From: Bacteroidota bacterium
GTDB lineage: Bacteria; Bacteroidota; Bacteroidia; Bacteroidales; GCA-2711565
DNA: 64,000 nucleotides
Direction of reading: 5' to 3'
NCBI GenBank assembly: GCA_003353955.1
Contig: PIVJ01000004.1
Coordinates: 1,608 to 65,607 of the forward strand
The notes below the pieces were generated by a model. It did no database searches and had not been told where the DNA came from. It worked only from the letters and a program-made list of their open reading frames with translations. Below, piece after piece: positions 55,165 through 63,927 of this stretch. How positions within the stretch are numbered: the stretch's first letter is position 1; each line of letters opens with the position of its first letter. A program made the position numbers and the translations under genes.

Positions 55165-55860
55165 TTAGCCGGTTTGACTAACCTTTTGTAAGGCTGGAAA
55201 ATCAAGAATTTCAAAATCATTCCCTTCACATTTTATAACTTTCGATACTTTAAATTCTTTAATGACACGAATAGCACTCTCTTTAGACATTGCGGCTAAA
55301 TCTGCAATATCCTGACGGCTGATGTTTACAGTAAATTTATCATTTTCATAAACCTCTTTTGATAAATAAATCAGGACATCAGCAATTCTTCCAGGCATTT
55401 GCTTTTGGGTGAGATTAATTAGTTTTTCAAAATATCGAATACCTCGCTGGTTAACCCATTTTATGAATTCAATTGAAAAAACGCTATTTTGCTTAACTAC
55501 CTCCATAATAGCTTCCACCTCAATAAAACATGCAGTAACATCACTAATAGCATTAACTGAATAGTAATGGCGAAAATCATTGAACATACCAGGCCCTGCA
55601 AGCATTTCGGTTGGGCGCAATATTTTGAGTAGCAAATTCTTTTTGTTGACACCCTCAATATAAACTTTTGCAAAACCAGTAGTAACACAAGCAATATGTG
55701 TTAAGGCTCCGCCCTGCTTAAAAATAGTTTCTCCTCGATTGAATTTTACCTCATGTCGATGTTCGTTGATATAGTTAGTTTCTTCATCGGTTAAAAATTG
55801 AAAAAGATTCTGTTTCTTAGAACAATTCTGACAAAATACTGCATTAACAAATAAAGGCAT
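55165..55860 (-). CDS. Crp/Fnr-family transcriptional regulator with N-terminal CxxC
   Basis: cNMP-binding-like beta-roll and a C-terminal HTH (SRQDIADLAAMSKESAIRVIKEF). Cys at positions 10, 13, 58 and 111. Divergent from the cytochrome locus. Confidence 0.85.
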   Translation of the reverse strand: MPLFVNAVFCQNCSKKQNLFQFLTDEETNYINEHRHEVKFNRGETIFKQGGALTHIACVTTGFAKVYIEGVNKKNLLLKILRPTEMLAGPGMFNDFRHYYSVNAISDVTACFIEVEAIMEVVKQNSVFSIEFIKWVNQRGIRYFEKLINLTQKQMPGRIADVLIYLSKEVYENDKFTVNISRQDIADLAAMSKESAIRVIKEFKVSKVIKCEGNDFEILDFPALQKVSQTG

Positions 55861-56041: not shown

Positions 56042-56176
56042 GTAAGTTAAGGATTTATTTCAATCTCAGTCTGGAGAGATATCATGGCCTGCTAATAACG
56101 AGGTTTTCACAAAAATGTGTATATTGTAATAGAATTAACAAACGCTAATAATTACTCTAACTTAAAACTACGACAA

Positions 56177-57253
56177 ATGAAAAAATTTACATTTTTAACT
56201 TTATTGACTGCGGTTTTTCTGTTTTCAATCGTTACGATGTCTAGTTGTACCAAAGAAGGAGCAGCCGGAACAGACGGTGTTGATGGACCAGCCGGTCCTC
56301 AGGGTATAGCCGGGGAAGCAGGGATTGATGGAACAGACGGTACTGCTGGATGTATTTTATGTCACACTGGTGGAGAAGAACAAGGTATGTTTGCTCAAAC
56401 TAACCAATGGGAGGCTTCAGTTCATGCTACTGGTGGTAATTTTGAAAGAAATACTAGCGATTGTGGAACTTGTCATACCAGTCAGGGGTTTCTTGCTAAC
56501 TTAGCAGGAACGTATGACGAGAATGTGGAAAATCCAAATCCAATTAACTGCTACACATGCCACAACATTCACAAAACATTTACTCCTGCTGACCTTGGAC
56601 TTACTGCTTCAGCAGGTGTTGAGTTAATGATTAATGGTGATGTCATTGATTTTGGAAAAGGTAATTTATGCGCCGTATGTCACCAACCAAGACTACCCGA
56701 TCCAATGCCAGTTGTTGGTGGTGGAGATTTTACAATTAGTTCTTCGTATTGGGGAGGTCACCATGGCCCTCAAACAACTACATTTGCTGGTACTGGGCTA
56801 TTCGAATTTAGTGGTACGGCATCACTTGGAACAAATGCGCACTATTTAACTATTGAAGATGGATGTATTACTTGCCATATGGCAGAAGCTGATGGCGTTG
56901 CCACAGGAGGGCATACTTTTAACGTAGCTGAACAAGATGCAGACGGTGTTTCCGGAGATCTCTCTCTGGCAGGTTGTATGGAATGTCACACTGACGAAGA
57001 TGTACTTGAAGCAGACATTGAAACATTACAGGATGATGTTCATCATTTATTAGCTGAACTTGCATTATTATTAAATGAGGAAGGAATTCTTGCTGTTGGT
57101 GATCATCAACCAACTCCAGGAACTTACAGTTCTGATGTTGCAGCTGCATTCTTAAACTGGGCTATGCTTGAAGAAGACAGAAGTTTTGGAGTACATAACC
57201 CTAAATATGTGATTGGTGTTTTGGAAAATACAATTGCAGAGCTTACGCCGTAA
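56177..57253 (+). CDS. lipoprotein hexahaem c-type cytochrome with N-terminal collagen-like (Gly-X-Y)10 segment
   Basis: ATG at 56177 gives MKKFTFLTLL..VTMSSC (lipobox). Haem motifs are CILCH, CGTCH, CYTCH, CAVCH, CITCH and CMECH. The C-terminal EDRSFGVHNPKY helix region resembles NrfA/HAO-class multihaem folds. Confidence 0.85.
   Translation: MKKFTFLTLLTAVFLFSIVTMSSCTKEGAAGTDGVDGPAGPQGIAGEAGIDGTDGTAGCILCHTGGEEQGMFAQTNQWEASVHATGGNFERNTSDCGTCHTSQGFLANLAGTYDENVENPNPINCYTCHNIHKTFTPADLGLTASAGVELMINGDVIDFGKGNLCAVCHQPRLPDPMPVVGGGDFTISSSYWGGHHGPQTTTFAGTGLFEFSGTASLGTNAHYLTIEDGCITCHMAEADGVATGGHTFNVAEQDADGVSGDLSLAGCMECHTDEDVLEADIETLQDDVHHLLAELALLLNEEGILAVGDHQPTPGTYSSDVAAAFLNWAMLEEDRSFGVHNPKYVIGVLENTIAELTP
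56258..56350 (+). repeat. collagen-like triplet repeat (coding)
   Basis: GAA GTD GVD GPA GPQ GIA GEA GID GTD GTA G: ten uninterrupted Gly-X-Y triplets ending directly at the first CxxCH. Confidence 0.85.
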
Positions 57254-57272
57254 TTTTGGTAGTTTACGATAT

Positions 57273-57307
57273 AAAAAAGGCTTCAATAATTTTAGGAGCC
57301 TTTTTTT
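57273..57307 (+). terminator. rho-independent terminator after the hexahaem gene
   Basis: AAAAGGCT..AGCCTTTT stem followed by T7. Confidence 0.6.
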
Positions 57308-57424
57308 GATTAAAATAATACTTAAAACAAATACGATGAAACGAACCCCAAAAATGCTTTCTTACACAAGGGTGATGATTAATTGGCGAGTTTCATATGA
57401 CCTTTTAAAATAAATTATAGACAC

Positions 57425-57835
57425 ATGAAAAAGACAATCTATATCTTGGGTCTGGCACTGATAGGAGTGATGTTTATTACAGGTTGCGAATATGAATTTA
57501 TTGCTCGCCCTTTGGTCATCATTGATCCAGTTGATCCAGATGATCCAGTTGACCCCAGTTTGATAAGTTTCGCTGGAGAAATCATACCTATTTTTACAAC
57601 TGGTAACCGGTGTACAAGTTGTCATGGAACAGGAGGGCAAGCACCCGTTTTAACAGCTACTCTGGCTTACAGCCAAATTATTTCACAGGGGCTTGTTAAT
57701 ACGGCAGATCCTTCTTCAAGCAAGCTCTATACGTATCCTAAAATAGGAGCTGGCACACATGTTTGGAAAACTTATTCTACCGATCAAGCCGCAGAGATAC
57801 TCCAATGGATAACAGAGGGCGCTAAAAACAATTAA
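57425..57835 (+). CDS. lipoprotein monohaem cytochrome c, PSCyt1 (Planctomycete cytochrome C)-like domain
   Basis: Lipobox ITGC, a DPVDPDDPVDP linker, then IIPIFTTGNRCTSCHG...ILQWITEGA, which follows the PSCyt1 pattern. Confidence 0.75.
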   Translation: MKKTIYILGLALIGVMFITGCEYEFIARPLVIIDPVDPDDPVDPSLISFAGEIIPIFTTGNRCTSCHGTGGQAPVLTATLAYSQIISQGLVNTADPSSSKLYTYPKIGAGTHVWKTYSTDQAAEILQWITEGAKNN

Positions 57836-57852
57836 TTAAAAAATCAGAAAAG

Positions 57853-58725
57853 ATGAAAAAACGTAACATAATTTTCGCATTCTTAATGTGTACAGGATTT
57901 TTATTCGCACAGGAAGAAGAGGCAAAACCTGAAAAAAAACCGGTTAGATCGCCCTTCGAAAGCGGTGTTTTAATCAATAATCAAACTGGAGTAATCCCAG
58001 ATGTCCGTACCCTTGAAATGATCATCGAGCATAACTTTGGCACCATTCAAAATGGAATTACTGATTTATATGGATTATACGCGCCATCAAACATCCGAAT
58101 TGGATTTAACTATAGTGTTACTGACAATATTATGATTGGATTTGGCACCACTAAATTTAGAAAACTTACTGACTTTAGATTTAAGTGGAGCTTTATAAAG
58201 CAATCCAGAGAAGGCGGTAGTCCGATTGCTGTTACTTATTATGGTAATATGGGTATTGACGGAAGAAATAAAGATGCTTTTGGTCTTCTATATATGTTTG
58301 AAGGTACTGATCGATTTTCATATTTCAACCAAATTATTATTGCCCGTAAATTTTGTGATGCTTTCTCATTTCAGGTAGCACCAAGTATTACTCATATTAA
58401 TAAGGTTGAGTTAACCGAAGAACATGATAGAGTTGCAATATCGTTTAGTGGTAGGTTAAAATTCAGCTATCAAGGATCAATTATTTTTAATTATGACGCA
58501 CCACTTAGTATTGAGGGAATTCAGGAGCACACAGAACTGGATTTTGAGTCCAAGCCAAGTTTGGCTTTTGGAGTAGAATTTGCCACTGGCACACACGCTT
58601 TCCAGATTTTTATGGGTACAGCGAACACACTTAGTCAGCAGTACAATATGATGACGAATGCTAATGACTGGAAAAATGGAGCCTTCTTTATCGGATTCAA
58701 CATTACCAGATTGTGGAATTTTTAA
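57853..58725 (+). CDS. outer-membrane beta-barrel protein, uncharacterised family
   Basis: Signal peptide (..FLFAQEE), alternating amphipathic beta-strand pattern and a C-terminal aromatic ..ITRLWNF. Starts 17 nt after the monohaem gene. Confidence 0.7.
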   Translation: MKKRNIIFAFLMCTGFLFAQEEEAKPEKKPVRSPFESGVLINNQTGVIPDVRTLEMIIEHNFGTIQNGITDLYGLYAPSNIRIGFNYSVTDNIMIGFGTTKFRKLTDFRFKWSFIKQSREGGSPIAVTYYGNMGIDGRNKDAFGLLYMFEGTDRFSYFNQIIIARKFCDAFSFQVAPSITHINKVELTEEHDRVAISFSGRLKFSYQGSIIFNYDAPLSIEGIQEHTELDFESKPSLAFGVEFATGTHAFQIFMGTANTLSQQYNMMTNANDWKNGAFFIGFNITRLWNF

Positions 58726-58884
58726 AGTATAATTAAAGAAGAAAAATATGATTACTGGAAGGGCACTTCTGATAAAGGGATTCAATCAAGTAATAGATGA
58801 TTATATATGAACTCTTAAATAATAGCAATTAAATTATTGGGTATTCTTTTTTAAGAACATTCTTTTTAATAAATAAATATCAGG

Positions 58885-59856
58885 ATGAAAGAAAAACTAA
58901 AAACCATTATTAAAATGGGGTTGTTTTTGATTCCTCTATTATTTTTTTACCTAGTGCTCATAGCGCAAAATCAAGAAGCTACCAGCACATTTGAATATGC
59001 TGAAGATAATCAGCAATGTCTAAAATGTCACGGACATACCTACTACAACTACTATAACGACTGGCTTGAGAGAATGATCAGGGAACGAATGAACCCTTAT
59101 TTTATCGTAGATTCGGCGGAGTATTATGAAGCCAATCACCGAAACTTCGCATGCATAGATTGCCACACATCAGAATACGAAAATTTTCCACACAATGGAG
59201 AGTTGCGCATGGAACCAAAATATGCTTGTATGGATTGCCATGGGGGTGATGATACATACGCCAAATTTAATTTTGAACAAATTGAATCTGAATTCTATAA
59301 TAGTATACATTCCTCAAAACATTCTGATGATTTTACCTGCTGGATGTGTCATAACCCACACTCCTATAAAATCAGTGCAAGAACTAACAGACACTTAAAT
59401 AAAACTATTCAGTACGACAATAACATTTGTTTAAGTTGTCATGCGGATATATCAAAATATCAGCTATTGACAACCCTGGAAAATCCAAATATTTTGGAAA
59501 CCCATAGTTGGCTTCCGAATCAAGTATTGCATTTTCAAAGTGTACGTTGCATTGAGTGTCATACCGAAATCAATAATTATATTTTGGTAGCTCATAATGT
59601 TCAAGCAAAAGATAAGGCGGTACAGCGTTGTGTTGAATGCCATTCTCAAAATTCAATATTGAAAGAAACCCTTTATAAGTATCAAAATGAAGGCTTCTCA
59701 TATAGTGAAAACAGAGATCGTAGTTTGGAGATTCCTAAATTAATCGGTGGTAATCGCCGATATATGTTGAACCTCGCCAGTGTAATTATCTTTATATTAG
59801 TTTTGGGAGGCATAAGCATTCATGCCGTTTTGCGTATCATTTTAAAACCAAGGTAG
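58885..59856 (+). CDS. membrane-anchored heptahaem c-type cytochrome
   Basis: Haem motifs CLKCH, CIDCH, CMDCH, CWMCH, CLSCH, CIECH and CVECH, with N-terminal and C-terminal hydrophobic helices. Confidence 0.85.
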   Translation: MKEKLKTIIKMGLFLIPLLFFYLVLIAQNQEATSTFEYAEDNQQCLKCHGHTYYNYYNDWLERMIRERMNPYFIVDSAEYYEANHRNFACIDCHTSEYENFPHNGELRMEPKYACMDCHGGDDTYAKFNFEQIESEFYNSIHSSKHSDDFTCWMCHNPHSYKISARTNRHLNKTIQYDNNICLSCHADISKYQLLTTLENPNILETHSWLPNQVLHFQSVRCIECHTEINNYILVAHNVQAKDKAVQRCVECHSQNSILKETLYKYQNEGFSYSENRDRSLEIPKLIGGNRRYMLNLASVIIFILVLGGISIHAVLRIILKPR

Positions 59857-59857
59857 T

Positions 59858-60478
59858 ATGTCTGAGAAATTATATTTATATCCACAATGGATCCGGGTTT
59901 GGCATGGTATAAATGCTATATTATGCTTGATATTGATTTTAACCGGACTGAGTATGCAATATTCCAATCCGGATACGGTCGTAATTATTCGATTTGATAT
60001 TGCTGTTAACCTTCATAATATTTCTGGCGTTATGTTATCCCTGAGTTATTTTTTATTCCTTATTGGAAATATGATAAGGCCAAATGGAAGGCATTACAAA
60101 ATTGTTGTAAAAGGGTTTTTGAAAGACCTGATGAAACAATTCATCTATTATGCTTATGGTTTATTCAAGGGCGAAAAAACACCTTTCCCAATAACAAAAG
60201 AGTCTAAATTTAATCCACTTCAAAGATTCACCTATATCATACTCATGTATTTTTTAGTACCTGCCGTAATATTAAGTGGGTGGGTGTTGATTTTTCCTGA
60301 CTTTATACAGAACAATTTATTTGGACAAGAGAGTATTCATTTGTTTGATTTATTTCATTTAATGACAGGTTTTGTTATTTCAGTATTCATGATTATTCAT
60401 GTTTATTTCTGTACATTGGGAAAAACTGCACTGAGAAATTTTAGAAGCATCATAAACGGATATCACGAATCACAGTAA
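59858..60478 (+). CDS. cytochrome b membrane subunit (cytochrome b561 / FdnI / PhsC-like)
   Basis: WIRVWHGINAILCLILILTGL opening helix and conserved His in later helices. The ATG is 1 nt after the heptahaem stop. Confidence 0.75.
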   Translation: MSEKLYLYPQWIRVWHGINAILCLILILTGLSMQYSNPDTVVIIRFDIAVNLHNISGVMLSLSYFLFLIGNMIRPNGRHYKIVVKGFLKDLMKQFIYYAYGLFKGEKTPFPITKESKFNPLQRFTYIILMYFLVPAVILSGWVLIFPDFIQNNLFGQESIHLFDLFHLMTGFVISVFMIIHVYFCTLGKTALRNFRSIINGYHESQ

Positions 60479-60522
60479 ATCAAATTATTAAACTACGATA
60501 TATTAACTGTTTGGAATTGAAG

Positions 60523-63318
60523 ATGAAGACACGTGATCATTTTAAACTATTGGCATTTCTAGCCATTTATTTGATGCAAGGAATTAATACCTTAAATGCA
60601 CAGTCAAACGAAGATTGCATGATGTGCCATGAGGATCCTGATATGGTTATGGTAAGAAATGGGAAAGAAATTTCCGTATTTGTTAACTCTGATGTGTTAA
60701 GAAAATCCATTCATACAGACGCTGATTGTATAATGTGTCATGAAGATGTGAACACTGAAGAATATCTACACTCCGATGACAGCAAAAAACTTCAAAATGT
60801 AAACTGTGGCAATTGTCATACAAGTGCCGATATGGGATTTAACAAAGGTATCCATGGTTTGGCATTAAAGCAAAATGGGCCCTTTGCACCTAATTGTAAG
60901 GATTGTCATGGTAGTCATGATATTTTGTCGGGTAGGCAGCCTGAATCACGTACTTATAAAATGAACATCCCCTTATTATGTGGCAGTTGCCATAAAGAGG
61001 GAGCGCCGGTTGACAGAATGTATAATTTAACAGAGCAAAATATTCTTGAAAATTATAGTCAGGGTATCCATGGCAAGGGATTATATGAGAGTGGTTTGTT
61101 TGTTACCGCAACCTGTAACGACTGTCATGGGAATCACTTTATTTTACCTGCTTCTAGCAATTACTCCACTGTTTCTACCAATAGAATCGCAAGCACTTGT
61201 ATGAAGTGTCATGTGAGAATTGAAAAAACACATAAAAAGGTAATAAAAAGCGAACTATGGAAATCAGAGCCAGACGCAATACCCTCATGTACCGAATGTC
61301 ATCCACCACACAAAGTAGAATACCAGAAGATTAATGAAACCGTTTCAAATCAATCCTGCTTAAAATGTCACAATAAAGATATTTCGGCAGGCGAATATCT
61401 TTTAAAACAAACTGGTGATACCATTCGTTTCGACTTATCACATTTATCAAATTCTGTCCATTTTAATATTCAGTGTACTAAATGTCATACCGATGTATCG
61501 CCCAAATTACAGAGGCCATGTGAAACCGTTGAGCGTGTTGATTGTTCTAATTGCCACGTTGAAGTTTCAAATCAATATTTTGATAGCGGACATGGCCACG
61601 CATTTCTTGAAAATCTTAAGAATGCGCCCTATTGTACAAATTGTCATGATACGCATGCTACGAAATCAAAATTTGATCAAACTTCACCAACTTATAGAGG
61701 TAACATACCACAGCTTTGTGGTTCGTGTCATAAAGAAGACGGGCAAGCTAATATGCAAACGCAACTAAAAGAGGTAACTGCTTTTTCTGACTACTCGCAA
61801 AGTACACATGGAAAAGGATTGACTGATAAAGGCCTACTAATAAGTGCAGTTTGTACTGATTGTCATACAACGCATCATGAGTTAAAGGAGTCAGATCCTT
61901 TATCATCTGTGAATTCTCAGAATATGGCAGCTACTTGTGCGCAATGCCATACCAGTATTTATAACGACTATGTTTCGAGCGAACATTCTATTGCTGATAG
62001 TGATGGAATACTGATATATCCCACATGCTCAACATGCCATTCAGCACATCTTATTAGTGATATTCAAGGGGATCAATTTATGAATGAAATTACCAATCAA
62101 TGTGGTAGTTGCCATACAAAATTATCCGAGACCTATCAGGAAACGTATCACGGTAAAGCTTATTTATTGGGTGATATGGATGCGGCAAGATGTTCTGATT
62201 GCCATGGGGCTCATAAAATTTTAAAAGTTGATAATCCTGATTCTGAAGTTGGCTATAAAAATATTGTTCAAACCTGTAAACAATGTCATAGTAATGCAAC
62301 ACTTGCTTTTACGGGCTACTTAACGCACGCTACACATAATGACAATAAGGTTTTACATTGGGCATTTTGGGCAATGACCTCATTACTTATTTTTGTGTTT
62401 GGTTCTTTCGGACTCCACACACTGTTCTGGTTACCACAATCACTTAAGCAGAGAAAGAAAAAGAAACATGAGGCAGCTATCCCAGGCTCGAAAAAGTATT
62501 ATCGCCGATTTAATAAAAGGCAGCGATTTACACATCTAATGATTATTATAAGCTTTATTCTATTAGCTATAACTGGGATGACCTTAAAATTCGCACATAT
62601 GGATTGGGCAAATTGGATTGCCAAACTACTTGGGGGAGTTCATTCAGCAGGTAATATTCATAGAGTTGCTGCTGTTATTACCTTTGCATATTTTACTTTT
62701 CATTTGTTGACTTTGTTTCAACTTAAAAGTAAAGCCGGTGTGAGTACCAAGGAATTTCTGTTTGGGAAAAACTCTTTGATGTTCAGCATACAAGATATAA
62801 GAGATTTTACAGCTTCAATGAAGTGGTTTTTTGGCAAAGGACCTCGTCCCCACTATGGTCGTTGGACTTATTGGGAAAAATTTGATTATATGGCAGTATT
62901 TTGGGGAGTTGCTGTAATTGGGTTCTCCGGCTTAATATTATGGTTCCCTGAATTTTTCACATTGTTTTTCCCGGGATGGGTAATAAACGTAGCTCAAATT
63001 ATTCACAGTGATGAAGCATTATTGGCAACCGGATTTATATTCACAATTCATTTCTTTAATACACACCTAAGACCCGAATCTTTCCCAATGGACACTGTTA
63101 TTTTTACAGGACATGTTCCATTGGATGAATACAAAGAAGATAGAAAAGCCGAATATGATGAGCTTGTGAAATCAGGTAAATTAGATGATGTAGTAGTTGA
63201 AAAAGAATTTAGCAAAGCTTGGTTGAAAACGATAAAATTCTTTGGCTACTTATTCCTATCACTTGGTATAGCTATTGTTATTTTGATAATCTATTCTTTA
63301 CTTGTGGGCAAATATTAA
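60523..63318 (+). CDS. 19-haem c-type cytochrome fused to a C-terminal cytochrome b membrane domain
   Basis: Signal peptide from the ATG at 60523 and 19 CxxCH motifs counted up to about nt 62300. From about 62341 come TM helices with RFTHLMIIISFILLAITGM and IHSDEALLATGFIFTIHFFNTH, paralogous to 59858-60478. Confidence 0.85.
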   Translation: MKTRDHFKLLAFLAIYLMQGINTLNAQSNEDCMMCHEDPDMVMVRNGKEISVFVNSDVLRKSIHTDADCIMCHEDVNTEEYLHSDDSKKLQNVNCGNCHTSADMGFNKGIHGLALKQNGPFAPNCKDCHGSHDILSGRQPESRTYKMNIPLLCGSCHKEGAPVDRMYNLTEQNILENYSQGIHGKGLYESGLFVTATCNDCHGNHFILPASSNYSTVSTNRIASTCMKCHVRIEKTHKKVIKSELWKSEPDAIPSCTECHPPHKVEYQKINETVSNQSCLKCHNKDISAGEYLLKQTGDTIRFDLSHLSNSVHFNIQCTKCHTDVSPKLQRPCETVERVDCSNCHVEVSNQYFDSGHGHAFLENLKNAPYCTNCHDTHATKSKFDQTSPTYRGNIPQLCGSCHKEDGQANMQTQLKEVTAFSDYSQSTHGKGLTDKGLLISAVCTDCHTTHHELKESDPLSSVNSQNMAATCAQCHTSIYNDYVSSEHSIADSDGILIYPTCSTCHSAHLISDIQGDQFMNEITNQCGSCHTKLSETYQETYHGKAYLLGDMDAARCSDCHGAHKILKVDNPDSEVGYKNIVQTCKQCHSNATLAFTGYLTHATHNDNKVLHWAFWAMTSLLIFVFGSFGLHTLFWLPQSLKQRKKKKHEAAIPGSKKYYRRFNKRQRFTHLMIIISFILLAITGMTLKFAHMDWANWIAKLLGGVHSAGNIHRVAAVITFAYFTFHLLTLFQLKSKAGVSTKEFLFGKNSLMFSIQDIRDFTASMKWFFGKGPRPHYGRWTYWEKFDYMAVFWGVAVIGFSGLILWFPEFFTLFFPGWVINVAQIIHSDEALLATGFIFTIHFFNTHLRPESFPMDTVIFTGHVPLDEYKEDRKAEYDELVKSGKLDDVVVEKEFSKAWLKTIKFFGYLFLSLGIAIVILIIYSLLVGKY

Positions 63319-63438: not shown

Positions 63439-63927
63439 ATGATAATCAGAGGTTTAATAATCGTTTGTCTTGTTGTATTTCTAGGAAGTAATAACTTGGC
63501 AGCTCAAGATTTTGAGTATGTTGGATCTAAAAAATGTAAGATGTGTCATAATAAAGCTCCTAAGGGCGCACAGTACAAACAATGGGCTGAGTCATCACAC
63601 GCTAAGGCAATGGAGTCTCTGAGTGCGGAAGAAGCAAAAGATCCCACATGTTTAAAGTGTCATTCAACAGTTGGTCATGTTGATCCGGATCTTGTTGCAA
63701 CCTTAAAAGTTACAGAAGGTGTTTCATGTGAGTCTTGCCATGGGCCAGGTAGTAAATACTCTCCAAAGTCAGTTATGAGAGATCGTGCTAAATCTATTGC
63801 AAAAGGATTAATTCTTCCTATAGAAGAAGTTTGTATAACATGTCATAATGATGAGAGTCCACACTTTAAAGGTTTTGATTTTGCAGAATATGTTGAAAAA
63901 GTTTCACATCCTGACCCATCAAAATAA
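63439..63927 (+). CDS. periplasmic tetrahaem cytochrome c (cytochrome c554/NrfB-like small multihaem)
   Basis: Signal peptide; haem motifs CKMCH, CLKCH, CESCH and CITCH; W..S.H after the first haem motif. Confidence 0.8.
   Translation: MIIRGLIIVCLVVFLGSNNLAAQDFEYVGSKKCKMCHNKAPKGAQYKQWAESSHAKAMESLSAEEAKDPTCLKCHSTVGHVDPDLVATLKVTEGVSCESCHGPGSKYSPKSVMRDRAKSIAKGLILPIEEVCITCHNDESPHFKGFDFAEYVEKVSHPDPSK

Follow-up and report, generated by a model that had tools for sequence, protein, structure and literature searches.

A pair of adjacent genes at positions 57425-58725 of the DNA analysed here, a 64,000-nucleotide stretch of contig PIVJ01000004.1 from a Bacteroidota bacterium (assembly GCA_003353955.1; hereafter the window), encodes a predicted monohaem c-type cytochrome lipoprotein, which we call cytA, and a beta-barrel protein of the DUF5777 family. 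We tentatively propose, with a confidence somewhat short of even, that the two products constitute a two-part outer-membrane redox module in an anaerobic electron-export chain. The module is conserved across Bacteroidota-type genomes and functionally uncharacterised, and it is a candidate for the movement of electrons at the outer membrane. Genes for an Fnr-type regulator, for CbcBA- and CbcL-like quinol dehydrogenases and for a hexahaem lipoprotein adjoin the pair, a setting that suggests the export of quinol-pool electrons and not Fe(II) oxidation, and the haem of the cytochrome, which is likely to be bis-His ligated judging by its sequence, points the same way. The computations reported below cover the gene anatomy, the barrel family and its predicted 12-strand fold, the remote homology of the cytochrome, the co-conservation of the two genes and their genomic context.

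A co-conserved pair of genes

The first gene, cytA (57425-57835, plus strand), encodes 136 amino acids (aa) with a predicted lipoprotein N-terminus, MKKTIYILGLALIGVMFITG followed by C, in which the lipobox ITGC (MFITG ahead of the cysteine) fits the bacterial pattern [LVI][ASTVI][GAS]C and Cys21, the putative lipid-bearing residue, has its codon at 57485-57487. Past this cysteine the sequence continues as C-EYEF and then as a Pro/Asp-rich linker, DPVDPDDPVDP (residues ~27-47), followed by a single CTSCH (residues 63-67, 57611-57625), a candidate distal His112 (57758-57760) and a C-terminal helix, ILQWITEGAKNN. After a spacer of 17 nucleotides (nt; 57836-57852), the second gene (57853-58725, plus strand) encodes a 290-aa protein with a signal peptide that ends in ...LFA ahead of QEEE, 12 predicted beta-strands and the C-terminus ...GFNITRLWNF. 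Its first mature residue, Gln20, is invariant in 111 relatives, and Gln at mature position 1 is typical of Bacteroidetes substrates of signal peptidase I (the 'Q-rule'). The features that an earlier note on this DNA had picked out, namely two genes 17 nt apart, the ITGC lipobox with the acidic C-EYE residues, the DPVDPDDPVDP linker and one CTSCH in the first open reading frame (ORF), and a signal peptide and terminal Phe in the second, are all present.

A scan of one genome per species yielded at least 573 stretches that encode barrel relatives, and the best 80 loci were taken as the primary set; they come from distinct species of Bacteroidales, Prolixibacteraceae and Lentimicrobiaceae, and cultured carriers of the pair include Draconibacterium aestuarii Z1-6, Tangfeifania diversioriginum DSM 27063 and Ancylomarina sp. 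DW003. All 78 informative loci have a cytA homologue immediately ahead of the barrel gene, with a median spacer of 18 nt; the other two of the 80 loci start at the barrel gene. The order of the two genes is the same in a metagenome-assembled genome labelled KSB1. This pairing is far beyond chance, and it bears out the belief of the earlier note that the pair recurs in Bacteroidota genomes as hypothetical proteins, the name under which the cytA relatives are annotated. A full-text literature search for DUF5777 gave no paper, and searches on porin-cytochrome systems in Bacteroidetes, on Prolixibacter and on PSCyt1 found nothing on the pair, in agreement with the remark in the same note that its function is undescribed.

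The association extends to a distant barrel clade sampled from metagenomes, with 33-45% identity within the clade and with cytochromes ~20-29% identical to that of the window. Among 40 loci of this clade with at least 2.6 kb of upstream DNA, 35 have at least one cytA-like gene upstream in the same orientation, and in 16 of those 35 such a gene immediately adjoins the barrel gene. The co-occurrence of the two genes, which had been named as a test of the pairing, is therefore found in both sets (78/78 and 35/40 loci). A YceI gene, confirmed by Pfam, is also upstream of the barrel gene in 20 of the 40 distant-clade loci, directly adjacent to it in 16, and at a few loci a Rieske or CHRD protein replaces the cytochrome. 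Because the pairing recurs in the distant clade, such replacements included, the barrel can be said to partner with small exported redox proteins across a deep evolutionary range.

Several variants of this arrangement were seen. At L106 (4141-5975) and L112 (679-1104), Tat-type Rieske [2Fe-2S] and CHRD-domain proteins occupy the usual cytochrome position, upstream of YceI and the barrel. At a few other distant-clade loci (L081, 3592-4458; L098, 1553-2452) a type IX secretion sorting-domain protein with one CxxCH adjoins the module; the protein of L081 has a weak Reeler-like match, and proteins sorted by this route could be cell-surface partners. In some Bacteroidales a further, divergent module copy lies close to the first (L027, 19232-20488; L051, 18354-20576; L056, 18416-20788). 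In the second copy of L056 the order is cytochrome (with Met-Pro), YceI and barrel, so that two types of module coexist in one genome.

The DUF5777 barrel

The barrel protein matches the Pfam family PF19089 (DUF5777, 'membrane bound beta barrel') over profile positions 1-247 of 247 with 252 bits (E=6.6e-75), the gathering score being 23.1 bits, and its relatives carry the NCBI name 'DUF5777 family beta-barrel protein'. AlphaFold2, run on a 111-sequence alignment, gave a model with a mean predicted local distance difference test (pLDDT) score of 88 and a predicted template modelling (TM) score of 0.82. The earlier note had suggested that the strands of the 290-aa product be counted, and in this model they number 12. 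When the model was compared with the PDB by Foldseek, the significant matches were outer-membrane barrels only (12-14 strands, plus larger porins), with OmpG, FapF, NanC, COG4313, Tsx and LpxR as the best and KdgM also among them. This similarity is generic, with query-normalised TM-scores of 0.53 or lower (~0.4-0.5 for the best matches) and ~10% identity, and the barrel therefore has no specific solved relative. The signal peptide, the even number of amphipathic strands, the hydrophobic belt and the C-terminal aromatic beta-signal (...RLWNF) are what would be expected of an outer-membrane barrel, and the family match, the model and the structural comparison together favour the claim of the earlier note that the protein is an integral one.

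Along the modelled strands, residues alternate between a hydrophobic and aromatic belt and a polar register that faces the lumen, the latter including the highly conserved charged residues E55, R82, D107, K111, K166, R201 and E242. The segment ahead of strand 1 (residues 30-45) is strongly conserved (P30, V31, P34, F35, I41, Q44, T45) and confidently modelled; several periplasmic turns and several extracellular loops are strongly conserved as well, and conservation covers both faces of the barrel and the lumen. Three histidines, H60, H181 and H248, are near-universal in the family (248 sequences in three sets). Two unusual architectures came to light, a tandem double DUF5777 protein (P0165, 615 aa) with YceI upstream, and a DUF5777 protein (P0292, at L081 5001-6275) whose N-terminal extension looks LysM-like by eye, its precomputed Pfam annotation giving DUF5777 only.

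The monohaem cytochrome

No Pfam family was matched by cytA at its cut-off (Cytochrome_CBB3 came at E=0.025), and NCBIfam gave a sub-threshold match only, to the Leptospira lipoprotein family LIC11213 (E=1.3e-6). The earlier note had placed the haem domain in the Planctomycete cytochrome C pattern (PSCyt1, PF07635). The motifs in question, IxPIF..CxxCH..WIxxGA, are indeed there, but cytA itself does not match PSCyt1 even at E<=10; 7 of 46 family members do so at E<=0.01, some reaching E=7.9e-5, and the listed relatives score 13.9-17.6 bits, under the 22-bit Pfam cut-off. Membership was rejected on this gathering score, and the pattern that cytA shares with PSCyt1, a domain that normally heads large multidomain planctomycete proteins of unknown function, is best taken as the mark of a remote relationship.

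Residues C21, Y23, P55, C66 and W128 are invariant in 122 cytA relatives, and the C-terminal WITEGAKNN is nearly so. H67 is invariant in 21 sequences and at least 90% conserved in the 122, and H112 is likewise at least 90% conserved. The AlphaFold2 model (pLDDT 80) has four helices (49-61, 64-67, 81-87 and 119-130) in a class-I-like domain, with a poorly modelled linker (pLDDT below 50 at residues 29-36), and a Foldseek search with it returned no match. A profile built over both cytochrome clades has as its best solved match FoxE, the Fe(II) oxidoreductase of Rhodobacter ferrooxidans SW2 (PDB 5MAB, E=2.4e-7), with which both FoxE haem domains align, followed by cytochromes c6/c551/c552 (~1e-5 to 1e-3) and PccH. 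The pattern IxPxF...CxxCH...MP...WIxxGA(K/P)N aligns between FoxE and the cytochrome family, and on the profile evidence and the predicted helices we assign cytA to the class-I c-type cytochromes, in a FoxE-like branch. The two nevertheless differ, in that FoxE, whose foxEYZ genes include none for a barrel, is a dihaem protein that is soluble in the periplasm and has His/Met haems (PMC10654088), whereas cytA is a predicted monohaem lipoprotein with His in place of Met-Pro.

This last difference divides the family. The Met-Pro motif, which would provide the distal Met ligand of a class-I cytochrome, occurs in 61 of 68 cytochromes of the distant clade. In the window's clade, cytA included, 78 of 80 cytochromes lack it, and the conserved His112 adjoins the Met-Pro position. 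Since a conserved His replaces the distal Met-Pro, we infer for the window's clade a bis-His haem of lower potential, which would suit an anaerobic chain. The haem-binding motif itself also varies within the family, as CX4CH in 23 of 80 Bacteroidales cytochromes (L006, 9524-9898, and 22 other loci) and 18 of 68 distant-clade ones (for example L110, 4561-4935), and CX3CH in a few.

Genomic context: a cytochrome island

The pair lies in an island of cytochrome genes with a conserved order, Fnr, hexahaem lipoprotein, cytA, barrel, (140-aa cytochrome c), heptahaem cytochrome and cytochrome b, whose members, leaving out the 140-aa gene, occur in 62, 73, 78, 80, 76 and 71 of the 80 loci, respectively. 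In the window, the regulator of the Crp/Fnr family (55165-55860, minus strand; Pfam cNMP_binding and HTH_Crp_2) is divergently oriented, and all that follows is on the plus strand. The hexahaem c-type cytochrome lipoprotein (56177-57253; six CxxCH, lipobox MSSC) has its likely start at MKKFTF... (56177), the mechanical ORF start being 56117, and matches the Pfam families MtrC/MtrF domain II/IV (E=6.8e-11) and Collagen repeat (E=5.9e-5). The latter reflects a tether of ~30 residues of collagen-like Gly-X-Y repeats after the lipid Cys (GAAGTDGVDGPAGPQGIAGEAGIDGTDGTAG), which is unusual for a cytochrome; the sequence gave no useful match against the PDB. The position of this gene varies among loci, from upstream of cytA to downstream of the cytochrome b gene.

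Between the hexahaem gene and cytA, a 12-bp hairpin (AAAAAAGGCUUC...GGAGCCUUUUUU, 57273-57306, plus strand) is flanked by A/U and has a ViennaRNA minimum free energy of -13.2 kcal/mol; with too few G-C pairs, it was not listed by a consensus terminator scan. A Bacteroidetes-type TAATTTTG motif (TAnnTTTG, with an upstream TTTG) falls on the hexahaem stop codon (57251) and is not decisive, and a promoter and terminator scan by sigma-70 rules, which are ill-suited to Bacteroidota, returned nothing usable. The cytA-barrel pair may, from these sequence features, have its own transcription start or an attenuator. Four small public sequencing runs (2018, one sample) contain 56100-60500 almost completely, their library type being unstated and none being identifiably RNA.

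Downstream of the barrel gene, most relatives have a gene for a 140-aa soluble monohaem cytochrome c (...NYIRTLKK) ahead of the heptahaem gene; it is missing from the window (58726-58884) and from the closest relative, L001. The heptahaem c-type cytochrome (58885-59856) has seven CxxCH and a C-terminal transmembrane helix, with Pfam matches to Cytochrome_C7 and c3_2, and is followed by a dihaem b-type cytochrome (59858-60478; Pfam Ni_hydr_CYTB, PF01292, E=1.4e-24), which matches NCBIfam NF011582, of the 'thiosulfate reductase cytochrome b' type, at E=1.1e-49, under its cut-off. Next come a 935-aa protein in which a 19-haem c-type cytochrome is joined to a cytochrome b domain (60511-63318; 19 CxxCH, Ni_hydr_CYTB at residues 666-847, Pfam multihaem families as well), present in 20 of the 80 loci, and a tetrahaem c554-like periplasmic cytochrome (63439-63927; four CxxCH, Pfam Cytochrome_C554, E=1e-12). 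Islands of some relatives add a 500-aa hexahaem membrane cytochrome.

A seven-haem cytochrome with a C-terminal transmembrane anchor beside a thiosulfate-reductase-like dihaem cytochrome b has the architecture of CbcBA of Geobacter sulfurreducens, and the 935-aa fusion that of CbcL, though it is larger; the likeness, which was drawn by description and not by alignment, concerns the neighbours of the pair and not the pair itself. Homologues of cbcBA, annotated as thiosulfate-reductase-like, have been noted in Prolixibacter, Marinilabiliales and Labilibaculum, and cbcBA was proposed as a marker of extracellular electron transfer (Joshi, Chan, Bond; bioRxiv 10.1101/2021.04.15.440034). Labilibaculum reduces Mn and Fe oxides by genes that were not identified (PMC5760507). 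The islands inspected encode no further outer-membrane barrel and no porin of large size, and the pair is the only predicted outer-membrane component of the window's Fnr-linked anaerobic-respiration island.

A candidate outer-membrane redox module

Taken together, these results lead us to the tentative reading given at the outset, in which electrons would leave menaquinol through the CbcBA-like pair of heptahaem cytochrome and cytochrome b and through the CbcL-like 19-haem fusion, cross the periplasm on c-type cytochromes, and arrive at the monohaem lipoprotein held at the barrel. From there they could pass to the hexahaem lipoprotein or to an acceptor that is extracellular or reached through the pore, for which Mn(IV) and Fe(III) are candidates by analogy with metal-reducing relatives. 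In this scheme we infer, rather than compute, the haem loading, the localisation, the contact between the two proteins, the direction of electron flow and the substrate.

The overall layout, a cluster of genes for a barrel, lipoprotein cytochromes and inner-membrane quinol dehydrogenases, resembles that of MtrCAB in Shewanella and of the porin-cytochrome complexes (PCC/Ext) of Geobacter, and the hexahaem lipoprotein and the hepta-, 19- and tetrahaem cytochrome genes near the pair agree with it; the window's cluster also sits in relatives of metal-reducing bacteria. The porins of those systems, however, have 20-26 strands and enclose a multihaem cytochrome, whereas the window's barrel is predicted to have 12 and has a one-haem partner, and the islands inspected encode no larger barrel. 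We considered and rejected the barrel as a sheath around the cytochrome or a site that it plugs, the lumen of a 12-strand barrel being too narrow for the haem domain of ~85 residues. Since 12 strands would be too few to sheath a cytochrome as MtrB does, or to be plugged by one as proposed for Cyc2, the role of the barrel would have to be that of a docking or anchoring partner, or of a narrow, specific channel beside the haem.

Several points weigh against this proposal. As modelled, the barrel falls short of the size that any porin-cytochrome mechanism described so far would require, and one haem cannot bridge the outer membrane, so that an essential part of the path must be missing or unaccounted for. 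In the distant clade no multihaem cytochromes accompany the module, whose neighbours there are YceI (lipid/isoprenoid-binding), Rieske and CHRD proteins, so that mineral respiration as such is not the core function of the pair. The near-universal H60, H181 and H248 fall on the lipid-facing register, as judged by simple strand alternation and not by coordinates, and are unexplained by the module model. Lastly, the terminator- or attenuator-like hairpin may place the hexahaem gene and cytA in separate transcription units.

Alternative explanations

The barrel could instead be a dedicated export or anchoring device that displays the haem domain on the cell surface, where it would meet an acceptor or the hexahaem lipoprotein, and we regard this as unlikely though far from negligible. 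It might work as a Slam-like translocon, as half of a SusC/SusD-like pair, or by threading the Pro/Asp linker through its lumen in the manner of autotransporters or RcsF. Barrels with a single polypeptide inside are of this 12-strand size, Foldseek matched FapF and autotransporter barrels among others, and the lipoprotein has an extended, low-confidence linker of 12-27 residues. The motif C-x-Y-D-(F) after the lipid Cys (C-x-Y-(D/E)-F in the window's clade) is kept in both clades, beyond the needs of a tether, and the strict one-to-one adjacency of lipoprotein and barrel recalls Slam and its substrates and SusC/SusD, in which adjacent genes for a lipoprotein and an outer-membrane barrel likewise work together. 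SusC, however, has 22 strands and the Slam barrel 14 plus a periplasmic domain, no partner in these pairs is a redox protein, and Pfam and NCBIfam show no sequence or family similarity of our pair to these systems or of its barrel to Slam (DUF560), TpsB or autotransporter barrels. Moreover, the conserved and confidently modelled residues 30-45 of the barrel may fill the lumen and leave no space for a threaded chain, lipoproteins of Bacteroidota generally reach the surface by a common signal-dependent route for which no private barrel is required, and the strong conservation of both barrel faces and of the lumen exceeds the needs of an anchor.

More speculative, and in our judgement decidedly unlikely, is the idea that the pair is a minimal trans-outer-membrane electron conduit of a hitherto undescribed kind, in which the barrel would have its own redox or metal site (His60, His181, His248) or would let the linker pass through its lumen. 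It would then be the Bacteroidota answer to Mtr and PCC, with the His/Met, YceI-linked version serving a different acceptor in other lineages.

The company of YceI suggests another explanation, in which YceI carriers ferry isoprenoid quinone or a similar hydrophobic redox molecule or lipid, to which the cytochrome or Rieske protein supplies electrons or from which it removes them, the barrel being a channel for hydrophobic substrates or an outer-membrane enzyme with outward catalytic His, Asn and Asp. Half of the distant-clade loci, as described above, have YceI upstream of the barrel gene, mostly adjoining it (20 and 16 of 40); the second module copy in Bacteroidales, for example at L056, is linked to YceI, and Rieske or CHRD proteins stand in place of the cytochrome at some loci. 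The Foldseek matches include COG4313, TodX, FadL and CymD, which are channels for hydrophobic substrates, and the lipid A deacylase LpxR. Like the catalytic residues of OMPLA, PagL and PagP, the invariant H60, H181/N183 and H248 are placed by strand alternation on the side that faces the lipid. Yet there is no YceI gene in the window's island or, the second copy excepted, in the 80 primary loci, the Foldseek similarities are generic (TM ~0.5 or less, ~10% identity), the orientations of the residues derive from strand alternation and not from coordinates, and no such outer-membrane redox enzyme is known. We consider this explanation quite improbable.

The earlier note had seen in the pair a possible split version of a cytochrome-porin of the Cyc2 type. 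On this reading, dissolved Fe2+ would pass into the barrel and meet the single haem at the periplasmic end, which would oxidise it and send the electrons inward. One haem beside a small barrel is the functional logic of Cyc2, which is defined by the fusion of both parts in one polypeptide of at least 365 aa, by PXFAR[Q/K][T/Y] upstream of the CXXCH and by a porin of 16 strands (Keffer et al. 2021, PMC8406198). The two share a single CXXCH (CTSCH in the window) together with a small barrel, a minimal alternative to large porin-cytochrome complexes, and a P-x-L after the haem motif, which is a general cytochrome feature. The lumen of the window's barrel is polar and charged, and an iron link is retained, in that the closest solved relative of the cytochrome, as judged by the profile match (E=2.4e-7), is the Fe(II) oxidase FoxE, which would count in favour.

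The features that define Cyc2 are nevertheless absent from the pair, and membership was rejected on all three. The window has two polypeptides, 136 and 290 aa, from separate genes, with the cytochrome a lipoprotein. Fused cytochrome-DUF5777 architectures were found neither among the top 120 matches of either family nor among the other relatives inspected, CxxCH occurs in none of 150 diverse DUF5777 representatives, and the longer DUF5777 proteins inspected are the tandem barrel, the fusion that is LysM-like by eye, or proteins with N-terminal extensions without haem sites. The PXFAR[Q/K][T/Y] motif was matched nowhere in a set of 8591 ORFs and proteins that covers the two families together with their loci, the window reading IIPIFTTGNR-CTSCH at this position, and the barrel is predicted to have 12 strands instead of 16; no sequence relationship to Cyc2 was detected. 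The setting differs too, with Fe(II) oxidation in the case of Cyc2 and, in the window, an island of quinol-oxidising modules of the Geobacter export type beside an Fnr-type regulator gene, which points to quinol oxidation and electron export. Fe(II) oxidase activity and a haem potential near +200 mV would be expected of a Cyc2. The His in place of Met-Pro argues for a lower potential in the window, and at neutral pH a bis-His haem, as predicted here, would probably lie too low to take electrons from Fe2+. Finally, the cultured carriers are fermentative or metal-reducing heterotrophs and not known iron oxidisers. Of the interpretation in the note, the features of a monohaem lipoprotein, the modelled barrel and the co-conservation of the two genes are supported, and the functional analogy of one haem beside a small barrel may hold, but a split Cyc2 the pair very probably is not.

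That the two genes are mere neighbours with unrelated functions is hardly credible, even though no evidence of direct interaction was obtained, given that they are adjacent in 78 of 78 loci, that their adjacency survives rearrangement (the hexahaem gene changes place, and additional genes come in downstream), and that it recurs in a clade whose cytochromes are only ~20-29% identical to the window's.

Implications for Bacteroidota

The reading of the pair as a two-part outer-membrane redox module bears on the route by which Bacteroidota pass electrons to extracellular acceptors, for which the pair offers a candidate outer-membrane element. Anoxic sediments, bioreactors and sites of corrosion harbour Bacteroidota in abundance, and reduction of Mn and Fe oxides is found in some of these bacteria; what had previously been noted in the phylum was limited to inner-membrane cbcBA-like genes (bioRxiv 10.1101/2021.04.15.440034). 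The pair is conserved in hundreds of species without a literature of its own, and the question becomes tractable through two genes in available isolates. A role in electron export would give a function to DUF5777 and to the unnamed cytochrome family, and would provide a marker with which metagenomes could be surveyed for electron transfer. The switch from Met to His between the two versions of the module would, in addition, be a natural experiment in the tuning of haem potential.

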